Of a stretch of DNA of 64,000 bases, positions 2,761-43,982 are shown piece after piece (within the stretch, counting starts at the first letter, position 1; the number at the start of each line of letters is the position of its first letter). The stretch is from an uncultured Hormoscilla sp. GTDB taxonomy: Bacteria; Cyanobacteriota; Cyanobacteriia; Cyanobacteriales; Desertifilaceae. Location: positions 5,664,001 through 5,728,000 of the forward strand of contig OZ001293.3 in NCBI GenBank assembly GCA_963921275.4, written 5' to 3'. The notes under the pieces were generated by a model. That model did no database searches, had not been told where the DNA came from, and was given only the letters and a program-made list of their open reading frames with translations. Made by a program: the position numbers and the translations under genes.

Positions 2761-3743
2761 TATTGCATTACGCAAATACATTAGGACATTCTCGAAAGGC
2801 AGCATCAATGCAGTCTTGGAAATTCTCAAATTCGTTTATCCTTTGTTTCATCCAATTCTTGAGAACAAACCACCAATGCTCTATTTTATTAAGAGCGGGA
2901 GAATAGGTTGGTAAGTATAACAGCTCGCATCCAGCCGACTCAATTAGTTCCCTAACGAATATTGACTTATGAAAACTTGCATTTTCAATAATAACTACAT
3001 CTCCCAAGTTGAGGGATTAAACAGAATTCTACCCAAAATTCAAATAAATCCTTGTTACAACCTCCACTAAATGCTAAAGGAGCAAAGACCTTATCTTCTC
3101 TCTGCGCCGCTATCTAACTGACTCTCTCGGTTCGTTTTCCGGATTTTAGTGCGTAAAATCTTTCTCCTCGGATCGCAGTAACCATAGGGGTATTCTTCTC
3201 TGTTATCTATTCCTGCGATGTCTCAGGAGAGCGCTAATCGCACTACTCCTGAGACATCGCCTCATCAACGTATATTCTCTTATTTTTTCGAGATTATCTA
3301 GTTTTCGCAAAAACTCTTGACGTTTTTCTTCATCTCTTTCCCGATATCCATAGGTCTTTTTTTTTCTGCTTATCCCTAACCAAAGCATGGTTCTACTAAT
3401 ATTTGGTTGCGTAACACAATATGGCCATCTCTTTTTGAGTTTTATCTCCATGCTCCTTTATAAACGCACGAAACTTTTCTTGATTGTTGATTTTGGGTTG
3501 AGGACCTTTGCGACTGGCTGTTTTAGCCTGAAAATATCCAGTCTCAGCCTCTCTTTTCAACCAAAGGTCCAGAGGATTCCTGCTAATATTGAGTTTTCGA
3601 CATATGTTTGTTTTTCGTTCACCTCGTTTATAAGCTTCGATTGCCTTTTTCCGAAAAGCTGTAAGGGGCCGGCATTATTATTCTCCTCGAATCGGTCTTC
3701 TTGTTTTACATTATACGTCCTAAGCTGCTTTGGTAGTGCTATA
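2761..3743 (-). mobile_element. IS630-family element, transposase pseudogene
   Basis: Imperfect TIRs (TATTGCATTAC...TTAGGAC and TATAGCACTAC...TTAGGAC) starting with TA; fragments [45 protein letters not shown]; several frameshifts and stops. Confidence 0.9.
3215..3260. repeat. Hairpin micro-element, family A (46 bp, empty form)
   Basis: GCGATGTCTCAGGAG-AGCGCTAATCGCACTA-CTCCTGAGACATCGC, perfect 15-bp stem; interrupts the IS630 YVDE|AG motif. Confidence 0.9.
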
Positions 3744-3821
3744 CAAGGTTTTCAGAAGGTCCATTCCGGTGAGTTATAATCAATATACCTTGTCAGTAGC
3801 CAATATGGAGCACTCGCACTT

Positions 3822-4451
3822 ATGTCTTACAGCGAATTCACCCTCGAAGAACTAGAAAGCCAATTTCAACTAACAATTCAGGAAGAAGTGGAATTATTTG
3901 ACACCGTAGAACCAGTCACGCCGAGTGGACTCTTGAGAGAAATATTAGCAGAGAACATTCCCCTCGCCTTAGCAGTAGATACAGAAAAAGCCCGCTCTGA
4001 ATTGATTATAGCTCCAATATTGGTAGAAATGAGGAAGCAATTTAATCGTCAAATTAGTGTTTTCTCTGGGACAGAATTTAACGTAGATAGAAGTAAAGGA
4101 CTAAGCGGGAGATGTGACTTTATCATCAGTCATTCTCCCAGACAGTTGTCCGTGACCGCCCCAGTAGCTATTCTCGTGGAGGCAAAAGATGATAACATCA
4201 AATCTGGAATATTCCAGTGCATTGCCGAAATGGTAGCAGCTCAAGTATTTAACGAACAGAAAAATAATAACATTCCCAGCATCTATGGTATAGTCACAAC
4301 AGGAAGTATTTGGAAATTTATGAAATTGGCAGAAAAACAGGTGGCGATCGAGCCCGGAGAGCATTTCATCAACAATATAGAATCCCTGCTGGGCATCCTC
4401 TCATATATAATCCATACTACTCGCCCCCTCACCGTGGTCGAGAAGCCGTAG
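3822..4451 (+). CDS. Conserved cyanobacterial hypothetical protein, PD-(D/E)xK / HsdR N-terminal-like fold
   Basis: MSYSEFTLE, TEKARSELIIAPIL, GRCDFII, VEAK, QCIAEMVAAQ and YGIVTTGSIWKF motifs. Confidence 0.75.
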   Translation: MSYSEFTLEELESQFQLTIQEEVELFDTVEPVTPSGLLREILAENIPLALAVDTEKARSELIIAPILVEMRKQFNRQISVFSGTEFNVDRSKGLSGRCDFIISHSPRQLSVTAPVAILVEAKDDNIKSGIFQCIAEMVAAQVFNEQKNNNIPSIYGIVTTGSIWKFMKLAEKQVAIEPGEHFINNIESLLGILSYIIHTTRPLTVVEKP

Positions 4452-4479
4452 TTGGGTTGAGGCACGAAACCCAACCTAC
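4448..4479. repeat. REP-like GTAG-hairpin repeat (GTAGGTTGGGTTGAGG.ACGAAACCCAAC family)
   Basis: Further copies near 21605-21637, 43805-43833 and 51591-51623. Confidence 0.75.
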
Positions 4480-4522
4480 GATATTAAAGTAAATCATCGC
4501 CGAAGATATTACCGATCGCCCA

Positions 4523-5674
4523 GTGACGAATCAATTTACATTTCAATCTCAGGCTGAATGCAGCCACACCCAAGCCCGGGCCGGGATTTTTACCACCCCT
4601 CATGGTATAGTAGAAACACCCCGTTTCATGCCCGTAGGCACTACCGCCACCGTCAAAGGCGTCACCTCTTCCCAACTGTTGGCAACCGGTGCCCAGATTG
4701 TGCTAGCCAATACCTATCACCTCCACATCCAACCCGGAGAAGATTTGATCGCCAAAGCTGGAGGTTTACATAAATTCATGGACTGGAATGGCCCTATCCT
4801 CACGGACTCCGGCGGCTTCCAAGTCTTCAGCTTATCTGAGTTACGCACCATCAGCGAAGAAGGCGTCACCTTTCGTTCTCCCCGTGACGGACGGATGATT
4901 AACCTCACCCCCGAGCGCTCGATCCAGATCCAAAATAAACTGGGGGCAGATGTAATCATGGCCTTTGACGAATGTCCCCCCTACCCCGCCACCCGCGCAG
5001 CAGTGGAAGCAGCCACCTCACGCACCAGACGCTGGCTAGAACGTTGCCTTCAGACCCATAAACGTCCAGAGCAAGCCTTATTTGGCATCATCCAGGGAGG
5101 GGTATATCCAGACCTGCGGTCAGCCGCAGCCAAATCCCTAGTAGAATTAGACTTACCCGGTTATGCCATCGGTGGCGTCAGCGTCGGCGAACCAGAAGCA
5201 ATCATCGCCCAGATCGTCAAGGTAACCACCCCCTTGCTACCCCCCCACAAGCCCCGTTATCTCATGGGCATCGGCACATATCGGGAAATGGCCCAGGCGA
5301 TCGCCTCCGGTGTAGACCTGTTCGACTGCGTCATACCCACCCGTTTAGCCCGTCACGGCGCCGTCTTCGTCGCTGGGCATCGCTGGAACATCAAAAACGC
5401 CCAATTTACCGAAGACTTCGCCCCTCTGGACGGGGAATGTCCCTGCTACACCTGCCAGCACTTCAGCCGGGCCTACCTCAACCACCTCTGGCGATCACGG
5501 GAACTCTTAGTCTATACCCTACTGTCCATTCACAACCTCACGGAACTAATACGGTTCACCCAGAGGATCCGGGATGCCATTATCCGCGACTGCTTCACCA
5601 GGGAATTTTCCCACCTGCTTACCCCACCTCAAGTGACCAGTGACCAATTATCAGTTCCAGAAAATGTAGTTTAA
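4523..5674 (+). CDS. tgt: tRNA-guanine(34) transglycosylase
   Basis: [37 protein letters not shown] and zinc site CPCYTC. Confidence 0.97.
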
Positions 5675-5755
5675 ATTTGTCTTAGCTTAACTGAGGAACT
5701 ATGTTAAAATTTATTTAAATTATGAGAGCCCCAACTAGGAGAGGTAAATTTACAC

Positions 5756-5893
5756 ATGGAAGCAGTGCTGCTATTGGCCAAATTGCCCGAAGCTTACTCA
5801 ATTTTCAACCCCGTGGTAGACGTTATGCCCGTTATTCCCGTCTTTTTCTTGCTGCTGGCCTTCGTTTGGCAAGCCGCCGTTGGGTTTAAATAA
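5756..5893 (+). CDS. psbK: Photosystem II reaction centre protein K (45 aa, below ORF-track cutoff)
   Basis: [45 protein letters not shown]; usual position downstream of tgt. Confidence 0.97.
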
Positions 5894-5923
5894 GAACGTC
5901 ACAGGCGATCTGCCCGATCGCCT

Positions 5924-6481: not shown

Positions 6482-6482
6482 C

Positions 6483-7990: not shown

Positions 7991-8012
7991 ACCCTGGCCT
8001 CCTGTTTCCCCC

Positions 8013-8122
8013 GATGCTGCGTCTCCTGGTGCTGCATCTCCTGGGAGCGCTAATCGCACTACCCAGGAGATGCAGCGCGCTAATCGCACGTTCCCAGGCA
8101 GAGCCGTGGGAACGAGGGGGGG
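8013..8122. repeat. Composite of family A hairpin elements and a GTTCCCAGGCAGAGCCGTGGGAAC repeat
   Basis: 8031-8076 has a perfect 15-bp stem with the AGCGCTAATCGCACTA loop and sits inside a second partial A copy; the GTTCCCAGG repeat also occurs near 16300, 37572 and 57539. Confidence 0.8.
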
Positions 8123-8210: not shown

Positions 8211-10608
8211 ATTAAACTAAGCCAGTCCGTCACCGGACCGACTCGTCTTCAAAACCGGACATGAGACTTTCGCCTCATCCTGCTCCTCGGTCACGCCACC
8301 CTTGTCATGGGTACGGCTACTGCCATCGCTGGCAGTCTTTTTGTCGTGGCAGTGTTTGTGTAGCAACTGTAGGTTGTCATACCGGTCCTTACCTCCTAGT
8401 GAAAGGGGCATGATATGGTCAACTTCCCATTTGTCACTATCCATAAACGTTAGTCCGCACTGTTGGCATTTTCCCTTTTGCTGCTTGAGTAGCGTTGCTA
8501 CCCTTTTACTCAGTTCGGGGCTTTTGCCTAATCTTGTGCTCCAATATGTGAGGTTCCCGTCGTATGGGCTTGCGGTCCCTTTCACTTTTACGTGTCTGAT
8601 TATCTCAGTTTCGGAGTGTTTACGTATCTTCATATCACCCTCTTTTGTCTTGCTTCGGAATCGCCATTTAGCATCCTGGTTTACAGACCAGTATTTATAG
8701 GTTATCCAGTTACTTGACTTGTTAGGGTGCCTCCTTTTGGCCCATTGCCATAGGATGTTCCATAGGTAGTTGTCCATATCGCTGTAAATTTCCTTGCTTA
8801 CCACTGTCCTAAAGTAGTTTGACCATCCCCTTATTATCGGGTTTAGCCTGCTTATTAGGGCCGCTTGTGGTGCTGTTATATGGCTAGTTACCATTTCTGA
8901 TAACCGTTCTTTATGCTTCCCTATGGACTTATTACTGGGTTTGATTAGGGTTTTGAATCCTAGGGGTGTTCCGTTTGTTGATTTGCCGGTTCTGTATTTT
9001 CCCTCTTTATATTGCCTTATATTGAATCCTAGGAAGTCGAATCCCGGGTTTTCTCCATTTAGCCTGTGGGCTATCTTTGTCTTTTCAGCCTTCAACTCAA
9101 GCCCTATTCTTCTTAGCCACTCTGCCACCACTGTTTGCGCTCTGTCTATCATCTCCCTGTCTTCATGCATGATCACAAAGTCGTCTGCGTATCTGACTAC
9201 CGTCAGCTTTTGCTTTTCCCTTTGTGTCTTTGCTAATTCCATTACTGCTTCCTCTAACCCCTGTAGGGCTATATTGGCTAGCAGTGGGGATATGACACCC
9301 CCTTGTGGCGTTCCTGCCTCAGTTGTGTGCCATATCTTCTTGTCAATCACCCCGGCTTTTAACCATGCCCGTACTTGTTTACGGATTGGTGACGTAGTAT
9401 TTAATTTTTCGACTAGCGCTTTGTGGTCTATCCTGTCGAAACATTTCGCAATATCTGCATCTAATACCCATTTGGGTTTCTGTTTAATGCTGCTGAATAT
9501 TGCCGCAATTGCATCGTGGCATCCCCGACCCGGTCTGAATCCGTATGAGTTCCCCTCCATATATGCTTCCCATTCGGGTTCGAGCGCAATCTTGAGGAGC
9601 CCTTGATTCGCGCGGTCGTGCATCGTGGGTATTCCTAAAGGACGTTTTTCTTCTCTCCCTGGCTTAGGAATCCATACACGACGTGTAGGCTTAGCCTTGT
9701 TTGAGATTTCAATCTGTCCTACCAGTTCTCGGCGTTGCTTTGGGGTTAGTGATTTCACACCATCCACACCGGCTGTCTTCTTTCCCTGGTTATCTTGTGT
9801 AACCCGTCGTACCGCTAGACATTTGGCAGCCCGGGAGCTTACCAGTAACCTTTGGAGCCTGCGAACTTTTTGCTTATTGCCTTCTTGTGCCGCTCTGTAA
9901 ATTCGTTTTTGCAACTTAAAGACTACCCGTTCCAGCCGAGGCCAGGGGATATCCTTCCATTCATTCATCGATTTTGACATCGTGCTCATGACGTATGTAT
10001 TGCTACTTACAACTTTACAATTGACGTTACCGTGAGGGCGTCAGCATATCCCATCCATTACAGAAAGGCGTTAGCTTCTCCGCGAAATCTTTCCCAGATA
10101 TAACCTGCCGAATGTAAGCAGATGTTGCGCCTTTGGTGGCTGCTCAACCTATCGACCGGTGGTTGAGAGTATGTACCTGGTTTACTTCGTTCCTCTAGAT
10201 GATTGGTCGTAGTTTTAGGTGGATTCCTTATGCCGGGTTTATTGTCGGTGCTTATTGGTCAGAATTCAAACCGCCAATGACCATTATCCTTTCCCTTTTG
10301 GGCCAGCGTGTTTAGCCTTATTACGCTGGTTTGTCGTAACGACACTGTAAATCTTTGCTTTCGCTCACCGTGACTACTTGCACGCTGCGCGAAAAATCGG
10401 CGATGACCGGTTTAGGCTACCAGCCAGGGCGCCTTTCGTACCCGCTTCACGGATTGATGCCATCGCTACCGTGGGGTAAGTGCTGTCACTCCTGCACCTG
10501 GAGGGGTGGGCTTTCACCACCATCATCTAAAAGTTATCAAGGCTAATGGAGCCTTGCCAGTGGTCCCCCTTCGGTTATCACCGGTGGTTTACACTGAACG
10601 AGTCGCAC
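8211..10608 (-). mobile_element. Group II intron (IIB, chloroplast-like), ORF-containing
   Basis: 5' GTGCGACTCGTT at 10608; DV GAGCAGGATGAGGCGAAAGTCTCATGTCCGGTT; DVI ending TTAGTTTAAT at 8211; EBS1 TGAATT pairs with exon GATTTA (G-U allowed). Confidence 0.93.
8217..9989 (-). CDS. ltrA: Group II intron reverse transcriptase/maturase with HNH endonuclease
   Basis: RPLGIP, GTPQGGVISPLL, RYADDF, X domain (LNPIIRGWSNYF), CQQC...EVDHI...NLQLLHKHCH. Confidence 0.95.
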   Translation of the reverse strand: MSTMSKSMNEWKDIPWPRLERVVFKLQKRIYRAAQEGNKQKVRRLQRLLVSSRAAKCLAVRRVTQDNQGKKTAGVDGVKSLTPKQRRELVGQIEISNKAKPTRRVWIPKPGREEKRPLGIPTMHDRANQGLLKIALEPEWEAYMEGNSYGFRPGRGCHDAIAAIFSSIKQKPKWVLDADIAKCFDRIDHKALVEKLNTTSPIRKQVRAWLKAGVIDKKIWHTTEAGTPQGGVISPLLANIALQGLEEAVMELAKTQREKQKLTVVRYADDFVIMHEDREMIDRAQTVVAEWLRRIGLELKAEKTKIAHRLNGENPGFDFLGFNIRQYKEGKYRTGKSTNGTPLGFKTLIKPSNKSIGKHKERLSEMVTSHITAPQAALISRLNPIIRGWSNYFRTVVSKEIYSDMDNYLWNILWQWAKRRHPNKSSNWITYKYWSVNQDAKWRFRSKTKEGDMKIRKHSETEIIRHVKVKGTASPYDGNLTYWSTRLGKSPELSKRVATLLKQQKGKCQQCGLTFMDSDKWEVDHIMPLSLGGKDRYDNLQLLHKHCHDKKTASDGSSRTHDKGGVTEEQDEAKVSCPVLKTSRSGDGLA

Positions 10609-11242: not shown

Positions 11243-12076
<834 letters not shown>

Positions 12077-17734: not shown

Positions 17735-18331
17735 ATGAACAATTTAAGAGGAATTAGTATTTATATAATCGGGATGATGGGTGCAGGGAAAACGACGGTG
17801 GGGGAATTATTGGCAAAGGAACTGGAATATCGTTTTTTTGATACGGATGTGCTGATTGAACGAGTCAAAGGAAAAGCGATCGGGGAAATATTCAAAACGG
17901 AAGGAGAAGCAGGATTTCGGGAGATAGAAAGTCAGGTGTTGGGCTCGCTGTCAGCCTATCTGCAATCAGTGGTGGCTACGGGTGGAGGGATAGTATTGCG
18001 GCAGAAAAATTGGAGTTACCTGCACCACGGCATCGTTGTCTGGCTAGATTTACCGGTAGAACAATTATATAAGCGTTTGCAAGGAGATACGACCCGCCCT
18101 CTGTTACAAGAATGCGATGTCTCCCGGACGCACGGCGAAAACCCGGGAGACATCGCAGACCCCTTGGAAAAACTGCGATCGCTCCTGTCCGACCGGCAAC
18201 CCCTGTACAGTCAAGCGGATTTACACATTACTATGACAGGAGAAGAAACCCCTGAAGGAGTAGCAAGGCGCGTGCTAGAGGAAATTCCGACTATTATCAA
18301 ACCAGAAGTAAAGAATCGGGAATTTAACTAA
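17735..18331 (+). CDS. aroK: Shikimate kinase, carrying an in-frame hairpin insert
   Basis: GMMGAGKTTVG, FFDTD, ATGGG and RPLL motifs; extra CDVSRTHGENPGDI segment. Confidence 0.95.
   Translation: MNNLRGISIYIIGMMGAGKTTVGELLAKELEYRFFDTDVLIERVKGKAIGEIFKTEGEAGFREIESQVLGSLSAYLQSVVATGGGIVLRQKNWSYLHHGIVVWLDLPVEQLYKRLQGDTTRPLLQECDVSRTHGENPGDIADPLEKLRSLLSDRQPLYSQADLHITMTGEETPEGVARRVLEEIPTIIKPEVKNREFN
18113..18157. repeat. Hairpin micro-element, family B
   Basis: TGCGATGTCTCCCGG-ACGCACGGCGAAAAC-CCGGGAGACATCGCA; same loop reverse-complemented at 32032-32046. Confidence 0.9.
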
Positions 18332-23951: not shown

Positions 23952-24119
23952 ACCTATAATAAATTGATTTCGACCTATAATAAATCGATTATAATATATA
24001 ATAAACTTAGTATAAATATGACTAAATTAATTATAACATATAATCGATTTATTCATATTTATACTAAGTTTATTCATATCCATACTAAGTCTATTCTGAC
24101 ATATAATAGATTCTTATCC
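23952..24119. repeat. AT-rich degenerate 21-bp tandem array (8 units)
   Basis: ACCTATAATAAATTGATTTCG, ACCTATAATAAATCGATTATA, ATATATAATAAACTTAGTATA, ... through ACATATAATAGATTCTTATCC. Confidence 0.75.
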
Positions 24120-24558: not shown

Positions 24559-27500
24559 ATGGAGGGAGAGGGAGGAAGAAGACTCCCCCAGGCCAGAGCA
24601 GCGATCGCCCGCAAGCAACCCGATATTATCCTCTTGGATCTAGGCTTTCCCGAACAGGCAAAAAACGGGTTTCAACTGTTAGCGGAACAGACTCAATCCC
24701 CCGTGCCTGTGTTAGTATTTACTGATCGAGAGAGCTTGATTGACCGGGTAAAAGTGGCTCGTTTGGGAGCACGGGGCTTTCTCCAGAAACCTATATCTAC
24801 AGCGCAAATTATGGAGGCGATCGCTCAAGTTATGGAAAAAACGGACCCGACCGTGGCCAAGCTGCTGATTGTAGACGATGACCCTCAGATGCTAGACCTG
24901 CTGCGCGCAGTATTAGAACCTTGGGGATTTACAATCACCCTGCCAAACGACGCCAAGCAGTTCTGGAATACCCTAGAACAATCGGCTCCCGATTTGCTGA
25001 TTTTAAATGTAGAAATGCCAGAGTTTAGCGGGATAGACCTGTGCGTGCGATTCGTTTAGCGTAAACCTACTTGACACGTGTCAAGAAAGGGAGACCGCTA
25101 CCAGGGTTCCATTAGCCCCGAGAACTTACAGGTGATGGTGGTGAAAGTCCACTCCTTCAGGTGCAGAAGTGAAAGCACTATCCCTACGGTAGAAATGGCA
25201 TCAATCCGTAAAGCGGGATAGAAAGGCGCTATAACTGGCAGCCCAAAACCGGTCAACGCCGATTTTTCGCGCAGCGTGCAAGTAACATGATGAGCGAAAG
25301 CAAAGGTTTGCAGCGTCGTCACTATCAACCAGTGTAATAAGGCTGACACACTGGCCCAAAAGGGAAAGGATACTGGTCATTGGCGGATGTACAGCCGACC
25401 AATAAGCACTGACAACAAACCCGGCGTATAGAACCCATCTAAAGTTACGACCAATCATCTGTAGGAACGAAGTAAACCGGTTGTAGACTCTCCATCACCG
25501 GTCGATAGATGGAGTAGCCACCACAGGCGCAACATCTGCTTTCATCTGGCAGGTCACAACTGGGAAAGATTAAGTAGAGAAGCAAATGGCCACCGGTAAT
25601 AGGTGGTATAGGCTGACGCCCTCATGGTTTCGTCAATTGTGAAGTTGTAAGTAGCAGTGAATATGTCACGGAACATCGTCGATAGACAAGTGTATGACTG
25701 GAAGGCCGTCCCTTGGCGAAAGCTAGAAAGGGTAGTTTTTAAGCTGCAAAAACGAATTTACAGAGCGGCACAGGAAGGCAACTTGCAGTTAGTTCGCAAG
25801 CTCCAAGGGTTACTGAATAGGTCATGGTCCGCCAAGATGATAGCGGTTCGGCAGGTAACACAACAGAACCAGGGAAAGAAGACAGCTGGTGTGGATGGTG
25901 TAACAGCACTAACCCCAAAACAACGACAAGAACTGGTAGGTCAACTCAAAGTCACCAGAGAAGCAAAGGCAAAACCCACACGTCGAGTGTGGATACCCAA
26001 GCCAGGAAGGGACGAAAAGCGGCCACTAGTAAGACCGACGATACACGACCGCGCACTTCAGAGATTGGTCAAACAGTCGCTAGAGCCCGAATGGGAAGCG
26101 TACATGGAAGCCAACTCCTACGGATTCAGACGCCCGAGAGGATGCCACGATGCGATCGAAGCGATATTCAATAGCATCAGATACAAACCCAAGTGGGTTC
26201 TAGACGCCGATATTGCCAAATGTTTCGACAAAATTGACCACTCAGCACTCCTAGAGAAATTGAATACAACATCACCAATCCGTAGACAGATACGGGCATG
26301 GTTAAAAGCCGGAGTGATGGACCAGGGAATATGGCAGGACACAGAAGCCGGAACTCCTCAAGGTGGGGTAATATCACCACTGCTGGCCAATATAGCCCTA
26401 CATGGGTTGGAAAAGGTAGTGATGAGTCTTGCCCACACAAAGAGTGAGAAAAGTAAACTAACAATAGTCAGATACGCCGACGATTTTGTGGTAATGCACG
26501 ATGACCGGTCAATGATTGAGCGGGTACAAGGAGTAATTGAGGAGTGGTTAAGAGGGATAGGACTAGAGTTGAAAGCCGAGAAAACCCAAATATCTCACAC
26601 GCTAGAAGGAGAAAACTCAGGATTTGATTTCTTAGGGTTCAACATCCGACAATATGCAGTAGGGAAACACAGAAGCGGTAAACTCACCAACGGAACCCCC
26701 CTAGGATTCAAAACCCTAATCAAACCTAGCGATAAATCCATTAGGAATCATAAAGAGCAACTATCACAGATAGTTCGCCGCCATAAATCGACACCACAAA
26801 CAGCCTTGATAGCCAAACTAAACCCAATGATCAGGGGGTGGAGCAACTACTTCAAGACGGTGGTAAGTAAGTTTCCTTACACCGACATGGACAAATACCT
26901 ATGGGAGCTGCTATGGCAATGGGCAAAAAGAAGGCATCCCAACAAAACGGGCAAATGGATTGCCAGTAAATATTGGGCCATAACCGGGAAAGACCGGTGG
27001 AGGTTCACGGGCAAATCAAAAGAAAATGGAGAAATAAAGCTAAACCGGCACTCTGAAACTGAGATAATCAGACACACAAAGGTAAAAGGGACAGCTAGCC
27101 CGTTTGACGGTAACCTAGTCTACTGGAGCCAGAGATTAAGAAAGAGCCCGGACGTAAGCACGAGAGTGATTAACCTACTCAAGAGGCAGGAGGGCAAGTG
27201 CCAGCATTGCGGACTAACGTTTAAGAACGGCGACAAATGGGAAGTGGACCACATTCTGCCAACCTCACTGGGAGGAAAGGACTGGTACTCCAACCTACAG
27301 TTGCTACACGATTACTGCCATGATTATAAGTCTGCCAGAGATGGCAGCAAAGGCCGTATCCATGACAAGGATGACGAAACTGAGGAGCCGGATGAGGTGA
27401 AAGTCTCACGTCCGGTTTTGAAGACGAGTCGGTACGGTGACGTACTGGCTTAGTTTAATAAAGTAGTGCGCAATGACCCACATTGGAATGATTTGCCCGT

Positions 27501-30315: not shown

Positions 30316-32880
30316 CTACGAGAAATTACGACGAGCAGCTGACAGCAGGAGGCGCTGTTCCCCACGGGAGATCGCCTGCCGGGTACGATCGACGGCATTA
30401 ATATCTACAGAAATGGAGGTGATACCCCAGCGCACTAAAGCATCTATTAATTCGGGATACATCGCCGGTGCCTGACTGCAGATAGAACAAGGAATTCCAG
30501 CTTGCCGTGCCATGGTAATTAACTGCTCGATCGCCCCCATGACAGCGGGATGACTAGCATTAAGATTACTTGCCAGGGGACCTAAGTCCCGATCAACCCC
30601 CAGCAACAGCTGAGTCAAATCATTGGTGCCAATAGCAATTCCCTGGACTCCAGCTTTAACATATTCGGGCAACAAAAATAAGATAGAAGGCACCTCGGCC
30701 ATGATCCAGAGTTGTAGAGAACGGAAAGCAAAGGTTTCTACCCGACGGCGACAAAAGGAAAACTCCTCTACCCTGCGCACAAAGGGCAAAATTAAGTTAA
30801 CATTGGTTAAACCCTCCTGGTGTAACCTGGCCAAAGCAGCTAGTTCCAGATCGAATAAAGTCGGATATAGCTGATAGCTGAGAGTCCCTCGCAAACCTAA
30901 TTCGTTTCTATCGCTGTCAGACCGCAAATCAAAAGAGCGATAAAATACTGGTCGGGGGGCAAAGGTAGCCGCAAACTTCCGCAGGATCTCCACCCATTGA
31001 TCGATCAACTCCGCCCCGCGACCCTGCTGCAACCACCACTTGGGATGCTTGTTCTCTAAAACCTCTGGGGCCATTAGTTCCGATCGCAATAATCCTACCC
31101 CATCCACGGGCAGGTCTTTGGCCCGTTCCAGAGAACTGGGTTGAGACAGGTTAACTAGCAGTTGCGTGGCAATGGGGTATGGAAAGTGCAAGTGACCGAC
31201 TGTGCTTGCCTGTGGGACTGGTACAAAGGAGTCTTCGATGTCTCCGGAGTAGTGCTCAGATGATGTCCCCTGGGTTTTGGCGATGTCTTCGGGGTTTTTG
31301 CGATGCATCCCGTCGCGCAGCGTGGCGCAGCCATAGACATCGGTCCGGGGGACATCAAGCTCTCCGGAGACATCGAAAGCCTCAACCTGATAAACTTCAC
31401 CTTTGTTGCCATCCATGAGTAATCTGGTGCCAGTGGAAATTACTTGCGTGGCATTACTGGCACCGAGAATGGCTGGGATACCCAATTCTCTGGCAACGAT
31501 CGCCCCGTGGCTAGTCAGTCCTCCCCGTTCCGCGATCGCCCCAGCAGCTTGTTTGAGTAGAGGCAAGTAATCAGTAGTGATTGCCCGCACTACCAAAATT
31601 GTACCCGACACGGCTGGCGCCGCGCTGCGCGATCCGACTGGCTCTCCGGGGTGGGAAAGCACCGTCGCAGGAGCGATCGCGCGTCCGGCCGCAGCGGCCA
31701 GTCCTCTGAGGACTAGCGTAGGAGATTTCGGATTATCCATTAGTTGGGGTCTGGGACTAGAGGGTGGGAGTACAGCATCATCTTTTTCTCTATTTTCCCC
31801 AGTCTCCCGTCTGGGAATTGTTTGCGTCAGCACAAGTTGCGGGTCGTTACCTGGTGCGAGTGAAGCCTGGACCGTCCATTCTAAAGTAAATCTAGGACTA
31901 AAGTCTGCTGCTATTCTAGTTGCGAGGGCAATTAGCTGTTGCAGGTAAGTTTGGTCTAGGGAATTGGTTGCGATTAGTTCCTCGCTGACTGTATAGCTTT
32001 GTAAAGGCGATGTCTTCGCGATGCCTTCCGGGTTTTCGCCGTGCGTCCGGAAGGCATCGTAGGTTTTTGCGATTTTTCGCGCAGCGTAGCATCCCGATTT
32101 TTCCGGAACGGTAGACATCGAAGTCGGGCTATCATGGTCGGAAACTAAGTGATAGGCAATGCTTTTTTGACCGGGTACCTGTACTAGGATCGAGCCAGTG
32201 GACGCCTCCACTTCCCAGTAGTCTGGGATGACTTCTCCTTTTACCAGGGACATTCCTAACCCCCAAGTCCCCTGGATGCTCCAGATTCGGTTGGCCCTTA
32301 AGACTCCAGAGGCGATCGCATTCTGGATCGGTTGCACCAAGACCGCCCAGTTAATCTGTGCGATGCTAATACCTCTGCGCTGCCAGAAGAACAAGCTGCG
32401 GGCTCTAAATAACTCCGCCCAGGCGAGTTTCAGGGTGCGGGCGATCGCATCATTATCGGTAAAGCTGACATAAGATTGCCAAAGTCCAGCAACAGTATCA
32501 CTTAACATAGGGTGATATGCCTCGCCACTCAGAGACTTGACATGCACAGAAGGGCGAAAAATTACTGTGGGAACTTGCAACTGTTTAATCCCTTGAGAAA
32601 GGGTTGCCAACCATTCTAGAGGTAGGGTGGCGTCCGCAAGCAGCTGACGGAGACGTCTGGCTTCTGCTTGCAGTTGGCGGGGGTTATCCACTCTCAAGGC
32701 TGCATATGCTGGTTCTAACCCGTCTTGAGTTTCCAGAAACTGCCGCCAGACTCCGCTGTTCACCACCAACCCCGGGACTACCGGATAGCCATGCTGCATT
32801 AATTGGCTCAGGTAAAAGGCTTTATTCCCTACCAGGGCCCGGTCCGTTGGTTGAATTTTCTCTAGCCAGTAAAGATCCAC
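30316..32880 (-). CDS. PEP-synthase/PPDK-like PEP-utilising protein with in-frame nested inserts
   Basis: VGNKAFYL, GGLTSHGAIVARELGIPA (phospho-His), DGVGLLRSE, MAEVPS and IGTNDLTQ motifs. Confidence 0.9.
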   Translation of the reverse strand: MDLYWLEKIQPTDRALVGNKAFYLSQLMQHGYPVVPGLVVNSGVWRQFLETQDGLEPAYAALRVDNPRQLQAEARRLRQLLADATLPLEWLATLSQGIKQLQVPTVIFRPSVHVKSLSGEAYHPMLSDTVAGLWQSYVSFTDNDAIARTLKLAWAELFRARSLFFWQRRGISIAQINWAVLVQPIQNAIASGVLRANRIWSIQGTWGLGMSLVKGEVIPDYWEVEASTGSILVQVPGQKSIAYHLVSDHDSPTSMSTVPEKSGCYAARKIAKTYDAFRTHGENPEGIAKTSPLQSYTVSEELIATNSLDQTYLQQLIALATRIAADFSPRFTLEWTVQASLAPGNDPQLVLTQTIPRRETGENREKDDAVLPPSSPRPQLMDNPKSPTLVLRGLAAAAGRAIAPATVLSHPGEPVGSRSAAPAVSGTILVVRAITTDYLPLLKQAAGAIAERGGLTSHGAIVARELGIPAILGASNATQVISTGTRLLMDGNKGEVYQVEAFDVSGELDVPRTDVYGCATLRDGMHRKNPEDIAKTQGTSSEHYSGDIEDSFVPVPQASTVGHLHFPYPIATQLLVNLSQPSSLERAKDLPVDGVGLLRSELMAPEVLENKHPKWWLQQGRGAELIDQWVEILRKFAATFAPRPVFYRSFDLRSDSDRNELGLRGTLSYQLYPTLFDLELAALARLHQEGLTNVNLILPFVRRVEEFSFCRRRVETFAFRSLQLWIMAEVPSILFLLPEYVKAGVQGIAIGTNDLTQLLLGVDRDLGPLASNLNASHPAVMGAIEQLITMARQAGIPCSICSQAPAMYPELIDALVRWGITSISVDINAVDRTRQAISRGEQRLLLSAARRNFS
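31234..31377. repeat. Four-level nested hairpin element (A contains B, B contains C, C contains an SDR-like unit)
   Basis: Three concentric GATGTC...GACATC pairs around CGCGCAGCGTGGCGCAGCCAT. Confidence 0.85.
32008..32120. repeat. Family C element carrying a family B element
   Basis: CGATGTCT...GCATCCCGATTTTTCCGGAACGGTAGACATCG with inner CGATGCCTTCCGG-loop-CCGGAAGGCATCG. Confidence 0.85.
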
Positions 32881-32922
32881 AGTTAAGATGTAAATAATCT
32901 CTCGTCAACAGGAGTATGGAAG

Positions 32923-33699
32923 ATGGGCAGCCCGACTCAATGGGTAAAGAGCTTTTTGAATCTGTTTCTCAAGTCCAATTGTCCTCTGTGCGGACGTCCA
33001 GCCGATCGGGAATTATGTCCATCTTGCGAGCGCTCGCTGCTGCGGTGCCAGTTTACCAATCCCAGTCAATTTTGGAAAGGACCGCTGCCAATATTTGTCT
33101 GGGGCTTATACGGCGGCCTGCTCAAGCAAGCGATCGCTGCCCTCAAATACGAAAATCAGCCCCAGTTAGCTCGTCCTCTCGGTACTTGGCTAGCCCAAGC
33201 TTGGATGAAATCGATATCTCCTGGGAGCGCTACATGCGCTGCGCGCACGCTGCGCGATCGCACTACCCAGGAGATATCGACGCCCCATTCTCAGGTTAAA
33301 CCAGCGGTTCGACTTCCCTCACCGCAAGTAGTTGTACCTATCCCCCTACACGCCGATAAGCTCAAGCAGCGCGGCTTCAACCAGGCAGAACTGTTGGCAG
33401 AAAGCTTTTGCCAATACACGGGTTTACCCTTGTGCCGCCAGGGTTTAGAACGGGTGCGGACAACGGAGGCCCTGTTTGGTTTGTCTCTTACTGAAAGACA
33501 ACAAGTTTTGGCTGACGCCTTGAGTGTGGGTGAAAGCTTAACTCAAAAGCGACCGCAACGGGTGCTGCTGCTAGACGATATCTACACTACTGGTACTACT
33601 GTAAGCGAAGCCACTAGTGTCTTGCGCCGTCAGGGAATTTTCGTCTATGGCGTAGTCGCGATCGCCACCACCAAGAAATCTCCCGGTAGTGGGTCATAA
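32923..33699 (+). CDS. comF: ComF family protein with in-frame insert
   Basis: CPLC...CPSC zinc finger, RGFNQAELLA and LLDDIYTTGTT motifs. Confidence 0.92.
   Translation: MGSPTQWVKSFLNLFLKSNCPLCGRPADRELCPSCERSLLRCQFTNPSQFWKGPLPIFVWGLYGGLLKQAIAALKYENQPQLARPLGTWLAQAWMKSISPGSATCAARTLRDRTTQEISTPHSQVKPAVRLPSPQVVVPIPLHADKLKQRGFNQAELLAESFCQYTGLPLCRQGLERVRTTEALFGLSLTERQQVLADALSVGESLTQKRPQRVLLLDDIYTTGTTVSEATSVLRRQGIFVYGVVAIATTKKSPGSGS
33211..33280. repeat. Family A element, filled form (24-bp SDR-like unit in the loop)
   Basis: TCGATATCTCCTGGG-AGCGCTA[CATGCGCTGCGCGCACGCTGCGCG]ATCGCACTA-CCCAGGAGATATCGA. Confidence 0.9.
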
Positions 33700-37766: not shown

Positions 37767-40754
37767 GTGGCTTTGAAAGATAAACATCGCAAATATCTGC
37801 TGGTTTTGGCAATCATCTGGTTGGCGGGGGCAGCAATCGATCGCCTGTGGTTTGCCCTGGACAATGGGGTCTTTGCTTGGGACCAGGCGGACTACCTGAC
37901 CGGGGCCTTAAATTACTGGCAAATCCTGCAAGCACCAGAATGGTTGAATAGGGAATGGTGGACCTCTTTCTGGATGCGATCGACCAAAATTCCGCCCCTA
38001 ACCTACATTACCACGGTTCCCTTTCTGAATATCTTTGGCACTGGACCGGACCAATCCACCCTGGTAATGCTATTCTATAGTGCCATTGGACTAGGTTCGG
38101 TGTATTGTCTGGGCAGGCAATTATTTAATGTCCGGGTGGCCCTATGGGCAGCGGCACTCTGTCAAATACTACCTGGTTTATATCGCTATCGCCTGGATTT
38201 TCTCCTAGATTATCCCCTGACAGCAACTGTTACCCTGAGTTTCTGCTGTCTGACCCTCTGGAAAAAGTCAATTAACTCCACTACCCTAAAGGGTAGGGCT
38301 ACAAGAACAAAGCCCGCCTGCGCAAGCTTAGGGTTGGCGACTATAGGGAGGAGGATACTGCTAGAAAACAAGTGTATTCATGGATGGTTTTGGGCAATTG
38401 TATTTGGGCTTTCCTTGGGGATGGCGCTATTAGTAAAGCAGACAGCATTATTTTTCCTATTGATGCCAATTTTGTGGGTAATTTTTGGGACAATTAAACA
38501 GGGTCAGTGGGGGCGCATAGCGCAGTTGATGGGGAGTTTGGCGGTAGCATTGTTAGTATGTTATCCCTGGTATCGCACCAATTGGTTGCTGATTTTGACC
38601 TCTGGTAAACGGGCAACCCTAGATGCGGCGATCGCCGAAGGAGACCCGGCCCTCAATACCATCGACGCCTGGGTTTACTACTGGAAAATTACTCTTTACC
38701 TGGTTTCCTGGCCTTTATTGCTAGTGGCGATCGTTGGCTTAATTCTCTATTGGCGGCAGCAAGGTAAGAGCAAGATGAATCTGCTGCCACCTGACTATTT
38801 CCCTATCTACCCATCTCCCCATCTCCCTATTCAGCATCACCTAGATTTCCCTTCCTTATCTAGGCGTCCAAATAAGAAGCATGCCACAGTAAAGGAGATG
38901 ATGGACTGGAAATGGTTAGCAGTATTTGCGATCGGGGCATATATTCTCTGTTCCCTGAATATTAATAAAGATGCCCGCTACGTGTTACCCTATTTACCTA
39001 TATTATCCCTGTGGTTAGCCAAGGGCTTGATTTCCTGGGATGCTGTCAGTCGTCTTTGGGGAAGTAAGATCCGTTGGGGAACGATGCTGTTAGCAACAGG
39101 ACTGATGTTGAGTAATCTCTTTCCTCTGCCTGGTGCTTCCCTTACCCAAATTCTCAGCCCCCGGACCCAGCATTATCCTTATCGGGGACAACCCTGGCCT
39201 CACCAAGAAGTAATTGATGAAATAATTAAAACTGAACCCTATTTGCGCTCGACCCTAGGAGTATTGCCCTCGACACCATTCATTAATCAGCACAATTTCA
39301 ACCATTACGGTGCCTTAAGGAACTTTCAGGTGTACGGACGTCAGGTGGGGACTCAGACAGAACAGGTGCCACAAGATGCCCGATCTCTATCTTGGTTTGC
39401 GACCAAAACGGGGGAGCAAGGATCGGTGCCCACAGCAGCGCAAACTCAAATCGTGCAAATAGTCGAGCAAGGATCGGATTTTAAACTGCAGAAAAGCTGG
39501 CCCTTAGCTGATGGCAGTACCCTCAAACTCTACCACAAAAAACAGCCGCCCGTACAGGTACAACCCGCCGCAGTACCCAGTACCGAAGTGCAGCTAGTCA
39601 GAGTAGAAGTGCCGGAAACAGTGCCTCCAGGAGTTCCCGTCCCTGTAACCTATGAGTGGATTGGTCCGTGGGAAGAGCTACAATCGGGTTTAGTATTAAT
39701 CACCTGGCAAATTGATGGTAATGTGAGGTGGGAAATGCCCAAATGGAAGCCTGCGCAGGCGGACTTTGTATCTGTAGCCCCACCATTTATGGTGGGGGTA
39801 GAGAAAAAGCCCACCTTGAAGCCCGCGCAGGCGGGCTTTGTATCTGTAGCCCGACCCTTTAGGGCGGGCGTTATGGTGGGGGTAGAGAAAAAGCCCACCT
39901 TGAAGCCCGCGCAGGCGGGCTTTGTATCTGTAGCCCGACCCTTTAGGGCGGGCGTTATGGTGGGGGTAGAGAAATCTCAAAGATGGTTGCACGACCACGG
40001 TATTGGCATGGGTGCTTTGTATTCTGAACAAGCAGATAAGTCAAGCTTTCAGGTCATAGAACATCTGGCAATGCTGCCTCCCTCCGACCTGCTAGCTGGT
40101 GCATACAGCCTCAAGGCGACCTACCTGAACCGGAAAACGGGTGAAAGCTATCCGATAAAAGTGCCAAAGGTGACTGTTACCATCGACCCCGATGCTGCTA
40201 TAATATCTCCGGTTTCTCCTGGGAGCGCTACATGCGCTGCGCGCACGCTACGCGGACGCACTACCCAGGAGAAACCGTCACCGGAATTGGATCTGGTGAC
40301 CCAGCTACGGCAGGTTGCCACCCACTTACCCAAGGGGTCCGAGGGACTGAAGATTGTCTTTGCCCAAACCGGGAGGATTAACCAGTACGATCCAATTCAG
40401 GACTATGTCCTGCAAGCCGATCTGGCCCTAACATATCGGATGCAGCAAGAACCAGAAAATCTGGACTGGGCCTATGAGCTGGTCTTATCCAGGGTGTTAC
40501 AGCAAAATGTAGAAGGCGCGATCGCGGCATTAAGACAAGTCCGGCAGCTAGACCCCCAAAACCCCTATGTTCATGCCTACTTGGCCTTCGTTTACCTTTA
40601 TGACTGGCGTCCTGGAGAGGCGGAACGGGCCCTGGAATGGGCGATCGCCCTTTTTCCTAATTTACCTGAAATCAAAATCCTCAGAGGCATTATTGCCCTG
40701 ATGCAACTCAACCTCACCAAAGCGTGGTATTATCTATCTGGAAGTATCAGTTAG
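37767..40754 (+). CDS. PMT/ArnT-type (GT39-like) membrane glycosyltransferase with C-terminal TPR and several in-frame repeat inserts
   Basis: AWDQADYL, FLLDYPL, LLVKQ and NKDARY motifs, many TM helices, TPR-like C-terminus. Confidence 0.85.
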   Translation: MALKDKHRKYLLVLAIIWLAGAAIDRLWFALDNGVFAWDQADYLTGALNYWQILQAPEWLNREWWTSFWMRSTKIPPLTYITTVPFLNIFGTGPDQSTLVMLFYSAIGLGSVYCLGRQLFNVRVALWAAALCQILPGLYRYRLDFLLDYPLTATVTLSFCCLTLWKKSINSTTLKGRATRTKPACASLGLATIGRRILLENKCIHGWFWAIVFGLSLGMALLVKQTALFFLLMPILWVIFGTIKQGQWGRIAQLMGSLAVALLVCYPWYRTNWLLILTSGKRATLDAAIAEGDPALNTIDAWVYYWKITLYLVSWPLLLVAIVGLILYWRQQGKSKMNLLPPDYFPIYPSPHLPIQHHLDFPSLSRRPNKKHATVKEMMDWKWLAVFAIGAYILCSLNINKDARYVLPYLPILSLWLAKGLISWDAVSRLWGSKIRWGTMLLATGLMLSNLFPLPGASLTQILSPRTQHYPYRGQPWPHQEVIDEIIKTEPYLRSTLGVLPSTPFINQHNFNHYGALRNFQVYGRQVGTQTEQVPQDARSLSWFATKTGEQGSVPTAAQTQIVQIVEQGSDFKLQKSWPLADGSTLKLYHKKQPPVQVQPAAVPSTEVQLVRVEVPETVPPGVPVPVTYEWIGPWEELQSGLVLITWQIDGNVRWEMPKWKPAQADFVSVAPPFMVGVEKKPTLKPAQAGFVSVARPFRAGVMVGVEKKPTLKPAQAGFVSVARPFRAGVMVGVEKSQRWLHDHGIGMGALYSEQADKSSFQVIEHLAMLPPSDLLAGAYSLKATYLNRKTGESYPIKVPKVTVTIDPDAAIISPVSPGSATCAARTLRGRTTQEKPSPELDLVTQLRQVATHLPKGSEGLKIVFAQTGRINQYDPIQDYVLQADLALTYRMQQEPENLDWAYELVLSRVLQQNVEGAIAALRQVRQLDPQNPYVHAYLAFVYLYDWRPGEAERALEWAIALFPNLPEIKILRGIIALMQLNLTKAWYYLSGSIS
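39746..39973. repeat. Three tandem REP-like double-hairpin units in frame (unit spacing 72 and 84 bp)
   Basis: AAGCCCGCGCAGGCGGGCTT-TGTATCT-GTAG-CCCGACCCTTTAGGGCGGG; inverted related copy at 38280-38328. Confidence 0.85.
40210..40277. repeat. Family A element, filled form
   Basis: CGGTTTCTCCTGGG-AGCGCTA[24 bp]GACGCACTA-CCCAGGAGAAACCG. Confidence 0.9.
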
Positions 40755-40763
40755 GCGAGTATT

Positions 40764-41000
40764 ATGGTAGTCGATCAACACCGAGAAGCTTTTATCCCTA
40801 TCGTCGCTCTGACATCATCGAACTTTGTCTGGAAGACGGTAAGTTAGCCGCCGCCGATGTGCAAAAGTTTCGGGATTTTTGCTAAATCCTCTCAGCATAT
40901 TACCATTTTCAGTTCCATCGGCCGCTGGAGTTTTTAAAAAATAATTTTGCCCCCTTCGATCCGGGTGCCGATACCAAGTCCAGAACTCAACCCACCCCGG
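40764..41000 (+). pseudogene. DUF3754/TMEM143-like N-terminal remnant
   Basis: REAFIPYRRSDIIELCL...FRDFC*ILSAYYHFQFH...LKNNFAPFDP with a frameshift and a stop. Confidence 0.6.
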
Positions 41001-41023
41001 TTCGATGTCTCCGGAGAACGCTA

Positions 41024-41689
41024 CAACTGCAACCCACTCACGTCATTACTCAAGACCAATGCGATGTTTGTGCCTGTTTTTTGTCTGATGTCGAGGCAGC
41101 GGTGGGGGAACTGACGGGCATTCAGCCCCAGATTATTTCCTTACAACCAAATATTTTAGCAGACCTGTGGGCGGATCTGCAACGAGTGGCCAATGCTTTA
41201 TCAGTTCCCGGAGATGGGGCGATCGCCTCCTTAAAAGCGCGAGTCGAAAAGATTGAGCAGCAGGAGAAGAAGGCCCATCCCAAGGTAGCTTGTATCGAGT
41301 GGACGGAACCGCTGATGGCAGCAGGAAACTGGGTGCCAGAATTAGTTAATTTGGCGGGGGGCAAGTCACTGTTTGGCATTACAGAAAAGCATTCTCCGTG
41401 GATGGAATGGTCAGAAATTGTAGCAGCGGATCCAGAAATAATTATTTTCATGCCCTGCGGTTTTGATTTAGAACGCACTCGCCAAGATGCCCGACAATTG
41501 ACAACACATCCGGAGTGGCAGAACTTGCCAGCAGTTCGGACTGGGAAAGTTTACATCATTGATGGGAATTCCTACTTTAAGCGTCCCGGTCCTCGGTTAG
41601 TGGATTCATTAGAAATCCTAGCAGAGATTCTGCATCCAGAAATCTTTAATTTTGGGTATCGAGGCACTGGATGGGAACGGGTGCATTGA
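41024..41689 (+). pseudogene. BtuF-like cobalamin/Fe-siderophore binding protein, N-terminally truncated
   Basis: LQPTHVITQDQCDVCA, ACIEWTEPLMAAGNWVPE and PGPRLVDSLEILA; normal N-terminus missing. Confidence 0.75.
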
Positions 41690-41759
41690 AATGCAAGCTT
41701 CGCTACCACACCCTACGCTGGAACCCTTTCCCAGTGGGGCTAGACCACCGATCAGTCGT

Positions 41760-42182
41760 TTATGCGATCGTCCAATCGGAAAGTCTCAGAGAAGGTACCC
41801 GTGCAAAATCCCGTCGGTTGCGCGTAACCAGGATAGCATTTACCGAAAGTGCGATCGCTGCAATTCGCAAATCTTGCGTACCAATGCGAATCTTTTGACG
41901 AATCAACTCTGCGTAACAATTGTAAGCCTCCTGGTCTAAGTCAAGCAAATTAACAGTTTTGAAATAATCCCAAGCACCACGCAGCCTTGCATAAGCTAAT
42001 ATTAGTGTATCAGCTGATTTAGCCTGCTTAATCATATTAAGCCATCCATACATCTGTTCCTCGAATGTAACGACAGTTACAGCAATCGCTTCAGGAACGA
42101 CGGCATCAATGCGCTGTCTTACAAGTGGATGCCCCCGCTGATAAAGCGAAACATGATCCGTATCAAGTATCCACAGAGTCAC
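41760..42182 (-). CDS. VapC/PIN toxin
   Basis: WILDTDHVS, IGTQDLRIAAIAL and LVTRNRRDF motifs. Confidence 0.92.
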   Translation of the reverse strand: MTLWILDTDHVSLYQRGHPLVRQRIDAVVPEAIAVTVVTFEEQMYGWLNMIKQAKSADTLILAYARLRGAWDYFKTVNLLDLDQEAYNCYAELIRQKIRIGTQDLRIAAIALSVNAILVTRNRRDFARVPSLRLSDWTIA

Positions 42183-42610
42183 TTCGTTCCATCAACCTCA
42201 TCTAGTTCACGATAATATGCTTCCATTTCCGCATCCCGCTCGCGACGAAAGGCTTCAATATCTGCCAGTACCTCGTCGAAATATGGATCGTCCTTAAACA
42301 TCCCAGCAAACTTTTTCCAAGGATGTTCGGGTTTGGGCAGTTCTATTTCCATTTTAAAAATTTCCGCCTTTGACAAACGCTCTATCAAAAGCTGGCGTAC
42401 CTTTGCCAGTGCTTCTTCTCGCGTCGCCCCCTCAGCCTGACAGTCAAGCGAACCCCACACTGTCGCCCTCACACTACCCTCGTTTTCCGTTTCTATCACG
42501 ACATCATAAGTCAACTTATACGACTTGTCTGCCGTCGATGTCAACTCCTTAGTCTTAGTCTCCATCTTATCCGACTTGGACGATGTCAACTCCTTAGTCT
42601 TAGTCTCCAT
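42179..42610 (-). CDS. HicB-like antitoxin with duplicated N-terminus
   Basis: AEGATREEAL and HPWKKFAGMFKDDPYFDEV; 4-nt overlap with the toxin gene. Confidence 0.85.
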   Translation of the reverse strand: METKTKELTSSKSDKMETKTKELTSTADKSYKLTYDVVIETENEGSVRATVWGSLDCQAEGATREEALAKVRQLLIERLSKAEIFKMEIELPKPEHPWKKFAGMFKDDPYFDEVLADIEAFRRERDAEMEAYYRELDEVDGTK

Positions 42611-42695
42611 TTCTATCCTCTGTACTACTTGCCTTTCTTTTTCATCTTAACATCATATCCGTTTGATTGACAAGCATTAAACAAAAGTTAACATT

Positions 42696-43012
42696 AATCT
42701 TCGACTTGACGGTAATATGCTTCCATCTCTGCATCCAGTTCGCGGCGATAGGCTTCTATATGTTCCAGCACTTCTGGAAAAACCGGATTATCTGCATACT
42801 CAAGAGCAAACTTCATCCGTTCTGATTTTTCCATTTCAATTTAAATTTACATCTGGACAATTTATGCCTTTAAAAAACGCGCCTTCAAAAGCTGACATAA
42901 AGAAGCGACCGCCTCTTCTCGCACAGTCAGGCAAACCCCACACTGTTGCCCTCACCATACCAGACTTCTCTGATTCAATTATCACATCATAAGTCAACTG
43001 CTTAGTCTCCAT
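42696..43012 (-). pseudogene. Degenerate paralog of the adjacent antitoxin
   Basis: METKQLTYDVIIE...VRATVWGLPDC...EAYRRELDAEMEAYYR with a frameshift and stops. Confidence 0.8.
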
Positions 43013-43180
43013 ATTCCTCATCCTACTTGCTTTTACCATTTCATCTTAACATAATTTCCCAAATAATGCGATCGCCTCCAATTGTCCAGTTGACAGAACC
43101 AGGTATATTCTGCTAAAATCTAAATCTAGATAGCCTGTTAGGATCGAATAATCAGATAGCAGGAAAAACAGGAGGAAACA

Positions 43181-43738
43181 ATGTCTGTAGAATTATTGCG
43201 AAAAAAATTCACAGTTCAAGATTACCGCAAGATGACAGAGTCTGGTATTATTAATGAAAAGGATCGGGTAGAATTGATTCGAGGAGAAATTGTAGAAATG
43301 TCACCGATTGGTACGCGACATGCTGCTTACGTGCGACGCTTAAATACTTTATTCTCGGGAAAGCTGCTCGGACGGGCGATCGTTGATATTCAAAATCCGA
43401 TAGAATTAGACGATACCTCGGAACCTCAGCCTGATGTAGCATTGCTGCAACCCTGTGCCGATTTCTACATATTGGGACATCCGCAGCCACGGGATATCCT
43501 TTTGATTATCGAAGTAGCAGATACCACTGTCAGATACGATAGAGAGGTGAAAATACCTCTCTACGCGGAAGATGGAATTGTCGAAGTTTGGCTAATAGAT
43601 ATAAATGGGCAATTTATTGAAGTTTATCGGGAGCCGACTCCCGATGGCTATCAAAATATTCGCCAGTTGGGGCGGGGTAAAAATTTGTCGATCCTGGCGT
43701 TACCTGATGTGCCGATCGCCGTTAACGAAATATTATAA
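43181..43738 (+). CDS. Uma2 (DUF820) family endonuclease-like protein
   Basis: RVELIRGEIVEMSPIG, SEPQPDV and IEVADTT...KIPLYA motifs. Confidence 0.9.
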   Translation: MSVELLRKKFTVQDYRKMTESGIINEKDRVELIRGEIVEMSPIGTRHAAYVRRLNTLFSGKLLGRAIVDIQNPIELDDTSEPQPDVALLQPCADFYILGHPQPRDILLIIEVADTTVRYDREVKIPLYAEDGIVEVWLIDINGQFIEVYREPTPDGYQNIRQLGRGKNLSILALPDVPIAVNEIL

Positions 43739-43936
43739 TAATCCTATTATGGAGTAGGTTAGGTTAACATTAGGAAAGATGGTGACCAGATCGAGGCCAA
43801 CAACAGGTTGGGTTTAGGCACGAAACCCAACCTCCAACTGCCATAACCTGAGTGTTGGGAATTCCCGCTAGCAAGCAGTTCGGCGTTTAGCTACGCCCAC
43901 GGGGTATACGCTCGCCGCAAAAGGGGATATCTCCGT

Positions 43937-43982
43937 GCCGTGTCTCCTGGGTAGTACGAATAGTGCTCCCAGGAGACACGGC
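43937..43982. repeat. Family A element (reverse orientation)
   Basis: GCCGTGTCTCCTGGG-TAGTACGAATAGTGCT-CCCAGGAGACACGGC. Confidence 0.85.

Follow-up and report, generated by a model that had tools for sequence, protein, structure and literature searches.

The small dispersed repeats (SDRs) of Nostoc are 21-27 nt long, share a fold with compensatory changes and nest into their own copies, and to our knowledge no enzyme is known for them. SDR1-8 of the Nostocaceae were reportedly described by Elhai et al. in 2008 (Genome Res 18:1484). According to the accessible text of PMC5861425, none of the SDRs was found outside Nostocaceae, and the part of PMC4390886 available to us has SDR5 inserting in HIP1 between bases 3 and 4. 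Here we describe a family of hairpins of about 45 nt from 64,000 nt of an uncultured Hormoscilla sp. (contig OZ001293.3, positions 5,664,001 to 5,728,000; this whole stretch is called the window), followed through its 7.03-Mb source genome (G000) and related genomes. We consider it probable that these are non-coding mobile elements whose two arms are kept matched by template switching in place, and whose folded strand is likely the substrate of an enzyme.

Like the Nostoc SDRs, the hairpins are very small, high-copy, cyanobacterial and precisely inserted, and nesting and a compensatory fold are shared as well. They differ, in a comparison that takes the SDRs by description only, in being 45 nt long with one long stem that carries at least four loop types (families A, B, C, D and more), and in lying outside the Nostocaceae; unlike that of SDR5, their targets are mainly G and not confined to HIP1, of which 4738 octamers lie on contig C1. 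With the REP/REPIN-RAYT systems, as far as the accessible text of PMC3116915, PMC3733652 and bioRxiv 10.1101/279083 describes them, they share a hairpin unit, two-sided compensatory changes, an asymmetric mobile piece with a 5' tail and some intragenic copies. In contrast to these, the hairpin is not a REP doublet, its tail measures 3 nt rather than about 6, no unpaired GTAG or GTGG stands 0-2 nt 5' of its foot (GTAG occurs within the inner stem of A and is absent from B, C and D loops), and no Y1 gene at 2 loci in G000 and 27 in G001-G005 is flanked by it. With the CGTC/TGTC-tagged palindromes, in the portion of PMC3733652 available, the hairpins share a TGTC/CGTC word, which here lies in the arm, and the lack of a known dedicated transposase; there the tag is unpaired at one end of stems of 8-9 bp with 4-5 nt loops, whereas both arms of the 14-bp stem described here contain it in paired form, and no cyanobacterial CGTC family is listed in that portion. 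The family works like a Nostoc SDR or a REPIN, yet it belongs neither to the REPs nor to the miniature inverted-repeat transposable elements (MITEs). No description of it was found in the literature searched, supplements and most subscription papers lying outside that search; the accessible text of PMC6520454 makes no mention of palindromes, insertions or mobile elements, and an Rfam scan of the window returned group II intron matches only, none for the hairpins.

Family-A copies were picked in G000 by loop and by each arm separately, pairing not being a criterion, which gave 280 copies, or 270 after those with identical flanks were collapsed. A perfect 14-bp stem is present in 107 of the 270, a single mismatch in 60 and 2-8 mismatches in the others, against a mean of 3.2 and a maximum of 10 perfect stems when right arms were shuffled among copies (1000 shuffles). 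Pairing stands at 0.87-0.96 at positions 4-14, at 0.47 at position 15 (expected 0.32) and at chance at position 16, so the stem is 14 bp long. Family B has 20 perfect stems among 34 (shuffle mean 5.8, maximum 11). The perfect family-A stems represent 62 haplotypes, and no fewer than 75 paired steps are needed to link them; the four-gamete test fails for 39 of 78 position pairs, and bases with a frequency of 4% or less are found on both arms in 25 of 90 carriers where 1.3 are expected; descent from a few clonal subfamilies is rejected by these three results. The co-variation is real and strong, and perfection is not the rule. Of 61 genomes, 5 contain the family-A core, and 5 of 301 from the order show the stem pattern, every one of them a member of a single genus (g1); a contig scan returned at least 69 named loci, all Hormoscilla among the matches listed.

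Presence and absence at orthologous sites, together with nesting, identify the hairpin as a mobile element of about 45 nt that produces no target duplication. The orthologous comparison covered about 2.3 Mb of G002 and G004 plus smaller loci, which limits all orthologous-site counts. Relatives and paralogues supplied 85 empty/filled pairs, a pair being dropped if either 8-nt flank had more than two mismatches, and in 48 of them the net gain is the hairpin plus 1 nt. The usual insertion consists of two extra 5' bases and 43 nt in front of a target G, and it is this G that closes the final pair; for the 48 pairs this 2+43 model is better than a 1+44 model in 28, tied in 13 and worse in 7. In this main class there are always two extra bases and the last stem base is supplied by the target. 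The extra two are TT in 29 of 48 sites and other bases in 19, the bases 5' of the stem being mostly TT or TG; the target base is G in 37 of 48, and C precedes it in 14 of the 29 TT sites. No target duplication occurs in the exact empty/filled pairs, and for 16 of 17 family-A sites TT is on the 5' side of the loop when this reads AGCGCT. Lack of duplication and such strand-specific ends are likenesses to a derivative of IS200/IS605, from which the element differs by having one hairpin rather than two subterminal ones and a target of about one base rather than a fixed 4-5 nt 5' target. Unlike a DDE MITE, it has no target-site duplication, and no full element with the same ends around a transposase was present among the 15 arm pairs inspected, as far as these were listed.

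Two ideas about the target were rejected. HIP1 was not seen as target of the 45-nt element, the empty sites not being HIP1, and the outer arm bases are not inverted copies of the target, as had been proposed: only the terminal G is target-derived, with one further base sometimes converted, and the outer triplets CGA, CGG, CTG and CCG are subfamily characters. Where the empty site of a TT insertion has a base other than A after the target G, this base has become A, pairing with an element T, in 7 of 19 cases (the reverse in 2/10; flank mismatches 5/58). No RNA data set with this sequence was among the sequencing runs listed. Matches listed from four sequencing runs of one study included no empty sites; these runs match the window without differences in long pieces, and are thus probably the same strain and not independent.

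The copies and their hosts in the window are as follows.

2761..3747, minus strand: insertion-sequence-like repeat of about 990 nt, host of the hairpin at 3216.
3215-3260 (core 3216..3259), plus strand: family-A hairpin with a perfect 15-bp stem over 3215-3260, listed as a 14-bp stem and 16-nt loop; a passenger of the 1-kb repeat, with A-T at pair 5 where its paralogues have C.T, C.T and C-G.
8017..8088, plus strand: family-A copy 8032-8075 (stem 8031-8076, 15 bp, perfect) nested in an older copy, at the point where its arm meets its loop; the older copy begins at 8017 and is truncated on the right by another repeat.
18113..18155, plus strand: family-B hairpin (stem span 18113-18157, 15 bp) inside a shikimate kinase gene; an in-frame insertion of 42 nt (TG + 40) preceding the target G at 18155.
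31236..31375, minus strand: nested composite with a family-A outer copy, in a gene for a phosphoenolpyruvate-utilising enzyme.
32008..32120, plus strand: composite with a family-B copy at 32019-32059 (13 bp) and two 15-nt micro-modules.
33211..33280, plus strand: family-A hairpin (15-bp stem) whose loop contains a 24-nt module; the host gene has a phosphoribosyltransferase-like domain.
40210..40277, plus strand: family-A hairpin (14-bp stem) with a 24-nt module, in a gene for a TPR membrane protein.
43938..43981, minus strand: family-A hairpin (stem 43937-43982, 15 bp), a loop variant with a compensatory inner A-T pair.
57525..57625, strand not assigned: composite that combines the same outer stem with a different, REP-like interior.

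The original prediction, which overlooked the composite at 31236, located five family-A stems (3215, 8031, 33211, 40210, 43937) correctly and as perfect pairings of 14-15 bp; its further statement that the stems stay perfectly complementary holds for these five and not for the genome, with its 107 of 270. The constant 16-nt loop ascribed to all five is exact only at 3215 and 8031, those at 33211 and 40210 being 40 nt long through insertion of the 24-nt module, and that at 43937 lying on the opposite strand with three differences. Family B was said to behave alike around an identical loop: both of its window stems are perfect (15 and 13 bp), and their loops face opposite ways. The loop is family identity in part only, at least four loops being borne on the same stem and loops being swapped at orthologous sites.

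Family elements sit inside genes and between them, nest within one another at fixed places, and where in frame lengthen housekeeping genes by 14-23 codons. The site at 18113 is empty in 4 of 4 aligned loci of relatives, as is that at 40210, an in-frame copy with a net gain of 69 nt, in 4 of 4 relatives. The copy at 33211, also in frame (+69 nt), is missing from G001, G002 and G003 and present in G004 as a 45-nt form with a 16-nt loop, a history from empty site to 45 nt (G004) to the added 24-nt module (G000) that is in frame throughout. A second, unrelated 24-nt in-frame insertion in that gene, at 33303-33326, is absent from all four relatives. The composite at 31236..31375 has a shorter version in G004 and is absent from the G002 and G003 loci, and at the orthologues of 32008-32120 G004 has a plain family-A hairpin, whereas G002 and G003 share another composite; the three different interiors between the same outer ends would reflect either cargo swap or an insertion hotspot. 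Among the relatives' loci compared, orthologous flanks were recovered for neither 43937 nor 33840. The 15-nt micro-modules, built of five T, a 3-bp stem, a 3-nt loop and a T, occur in the window at 25263, 32073, 32098 and 59694 (plus) and at 10396 and 34249 (minus), each directly after CGA; genome-wide, 263 of at least 302 follow CGA.

Copies at fixed sites record how arms change. The repeat at 2761..3747 has four filled copies in G000 and one distant empty copy (69% alike); its reading frames are broken and, judged by motifs, resemble a putative IS630-type transposase. One hairpin pair is C-G, C.T, C.T and A-T in the four paralogues, and of 4 private substitutions in about 715 nt of the window copy one is the exact compensating base (chance about 0.002). 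Rare paired changes also separate orthologous sites, at L198 against G000 C1:2719758 (T-A/G-C) and at L123 against G000 C1:2728031 (A-T/C-G). In family D, counted by flank as 50 elements with double-counted palindromes excluded, the parent form with a 3-nt mismatch is kept in 33; the right side has been converted to match the left in 6, the left to match the right in 4, and other paired blocks in 2, while 4 copies are decayed, 1 is ambiguous and none has the opposite mismatch. At most one partial intermediate of these 3-nt blocks exists among the 50. There are also fully palindromic D copies with the 4-nt loop kept or inverted. L078 differs from C1:2405912 by a loop inversion and a 2-nt stem extension between 100% identical flanks (L279 equals G000), and a loop inversion also distinguishes two paralogues that share one host site. 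The available text of PMC8794818 counts inverted loops, stem extension and multiple compensatory changes among the footprints of template switching, and the process is likewise argued for bacterial inverted repeats in that of PMC5941160. What those texts describe for quasi-palindromes (arm homogenisation, multi-base compensation, stem extension, loop inversion) is matched here, with the difference that it happens within a dispersed mobile family, whose movement then spreads corrected variants. A loop switch between CTACCC and CAAAAG, or a near form, appears at six sites in orthologous comparisons, and suggests in-place exchange of loop patches by gene conversion between copies.

In the strand that reads TAGTGC, the 'loop' resolves into a bulged T, a further five pairs and a loop of 5 nt, and this strand is predicted to fold better than the other (DNA -21.1 vs -18.4 kcal/mol; RNA -37.1 vs -32.7). 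Of the 270 family-A copies, 265 retain an inner T·G pair, the pair beside it being G-C in 239 and A-T in 16; a separate search returned 1 perfected inner stem against 121 native ones. Because arm copying alone would erase the T·G pair, something conserves it, and the simplest reading suggests that the folded strand is recognised. The original prediction had offered the folded hairpin as a recognised substrate and, alternatively, the copying of one arm from the other during mobilisation or repair. The former gains support from the kept T·G beside a co-varying neighbour and is compatible with arm copying; the copying finds support in block conversions, loop inversions and paired changes, which occur in place and do not need mobilisation.

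On the account that we favour, a point change in one arm would likely be transferred to the opposite arm in place, presumably when replication switches template; loop patches may be exchanged between copies through gene conversion, the folded single strand is likely recognised by the mobilising enzyme, and selection on the fold at movement may keep the inner T·G pair, the bulge and the internal mismatch of family D. An alternative is that arms are equalised during movement, the strand that has been excised or copied folding up and being repaired at its mismatches, or having its second arm re-synthesised by fold-back, so that new insertions are perfect and then decay. The A change beside the target G in 7 of 19 TT sites, with position 16 never enriched, points to such an integration step, and young copies tend to be more perfect (13/19 vs 6/15); yet mismatched forms have spread unchanged (the D parent; about 42 copies of an A variant whose inner 3 bp are broken) and paired changes also arise at fixed sites, and we regard this alternative as unlikely. 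Selection on structure without copying, in which point mutations are compensated in two steps and only well-folded copies move (or are tolerated in RNA), would explain why single-mismatch copies are common (60/270), why inner pairs co-vary while T·G is kept and why short stems co-vary between kept mismatches. It is weakened by 3-nt blocks that flip with hardly an intermediate, by loop inversions, which cannot be point mutations, and by the compensation of copy 3216 as a passenger of another element, and of the explanations considered it seems to us the least credible. Hardly better placed is movement through RNA, in which a borrowed group II intron reverse transcriptase (RT) would copy a hairpin transcript into DNA at a nick, a short A tail at the 3' end of the transcript giving the 5' TT. 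The better-folding strand ends in GAA and holds the T·G (U·G) pair, the micro-modules likewise begin with a T run and the window has two intact group II intron RT genes, but the extra bases, always two in number, differ from TT in 19 of 48 sites, and the main class lacks target duplication or deletion. We consider this route quite improbable.

Several observations weigh against in-place copying in a mobile hairpin. Fixed sites change mostly by plain decay: among 21 same-length orthologous pairs there are 12 single changes, 1 paired and 1 unpaired double change, and mismatches accumulate at fixed sites as the original prediction said they would if it were wrong, although the arms do not fall into a few clones. 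The rare bases are unpaired in 65 of 90 carriers, which is ordinary decay. The excess of perfect stems in lineage-specific over shared copies is not significant (p 0.16), and selection at movement is therefore not shown by it. Converted family-D copies may descend from few events and be partly clonal; in 22 of 33 D copies, two kept mismatch blocks flank a 6-bp stem that co-varies, which calls for very short tracts or for selection. Outer-stem mismatches number 65 G.T and 68 A.C, with no strand bias; strand-specific wobble in the outer stem was rejected on these even counts. As to mobility, 37 of the 85 pairs depart from the +1 rule (gaps 3-11), partly as +44/+46 classes and partly through flank divergence, and some pairs share a host repeat. 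Finally, 0 of the 29 Y1 loci has a family A-D loop beside the gene.

These Y1 loci are flanked by other repeats or by none; an A word lies about 1.1 kb from one, and G005 has an unstemmed look-alike. Two RAYT-like Y1 genes of G000, L001 (C1:241795) and L002 (C1:1348544), each stand beside tandem REP arrays, units of which also occur in the window (39715-39954; 49387-49478); as read from sequence, the HUH motif of L001 is degenerate, and L002 matches part of the family only and looks frameshifted. No element was present at the ends of Y1, IS110 (4), resolvase (10) or TnpB (8) genes, distances being like random (median 5.5 kb), and a Y2 search gave 0 matches, its control also matching nowhere. 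Five near-identical resolvase + TnpB (IS607-type) elements lie at G000 C1:50147, 195671, 1400128, 4428982 and 6146638. There are 19 long-range arm pairs (0.3-6 kb), and those inspected have no transposase between their arms, being inverted copies of other repeats, hairpin pairs, or an insertion sequence inside a hairpin. One insertion sequence, at G000 C1:5277776-5280555, has interrupted a family-A copy and is bordered by a TAG repeat. Our tentative candidate for the mobiliser, short of probable, is an HUH (Y1) transposase that would cut and join single strands in trans, and it ranks above host replication/repair or a recombinase, and these above a borrowed intron RT. It is placed first because absence of duplication, one-strand polarity and the 5' tail match HUH/Y1 chemistry and REPIN excision, features given as such in the accessible text of PMC3116915 and bioRxiv 279083.

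Other observations concern the surroundings. The window holds two group II introns with RT-maturase-HNH genes (8211-9989, minus; 25657-27459, plus) and the domain-V/VI end of a third (11999-12076), as well as AT-rich overlapping inverted repeats with arms of 15 and 22 bp at 23979-24074, unrelated to the hairpin family. Contig C3 of G000 (31 kb, 17.6% G+C) is unlike the rest of the assembly and possibly foreign, e.g. organellar.

The spread of sub-100-nt cyanobacterial repeats has been a question since the SDR paper, and in this family both ends are known at single-base resolution, so that the substrate can be put to the test. A bolder reading, which we think doubtful, is of a genus-wide minimal mobile DNA in which the 14-bp stem is the whole cis signal, recognised by its shape and not by its sequence, with the loop as swappable cargo. 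An undescribed enzyme would then cut 2 nt outside one foot and 1 nt inside the other and would also move the 15- and 24-nt modules, and arm copying, built into the life cycle, would let the signal drift freely in sequence; if true, this would be the smallest programmable scarless insertion system known. The family is a natural record of template switching. Since fixed sites show block conversions and loop inversions, co-variation in such repeats is not necessarily proof that an RNA structure is under selection, and RNA discovery based on covariance calls for caution here.

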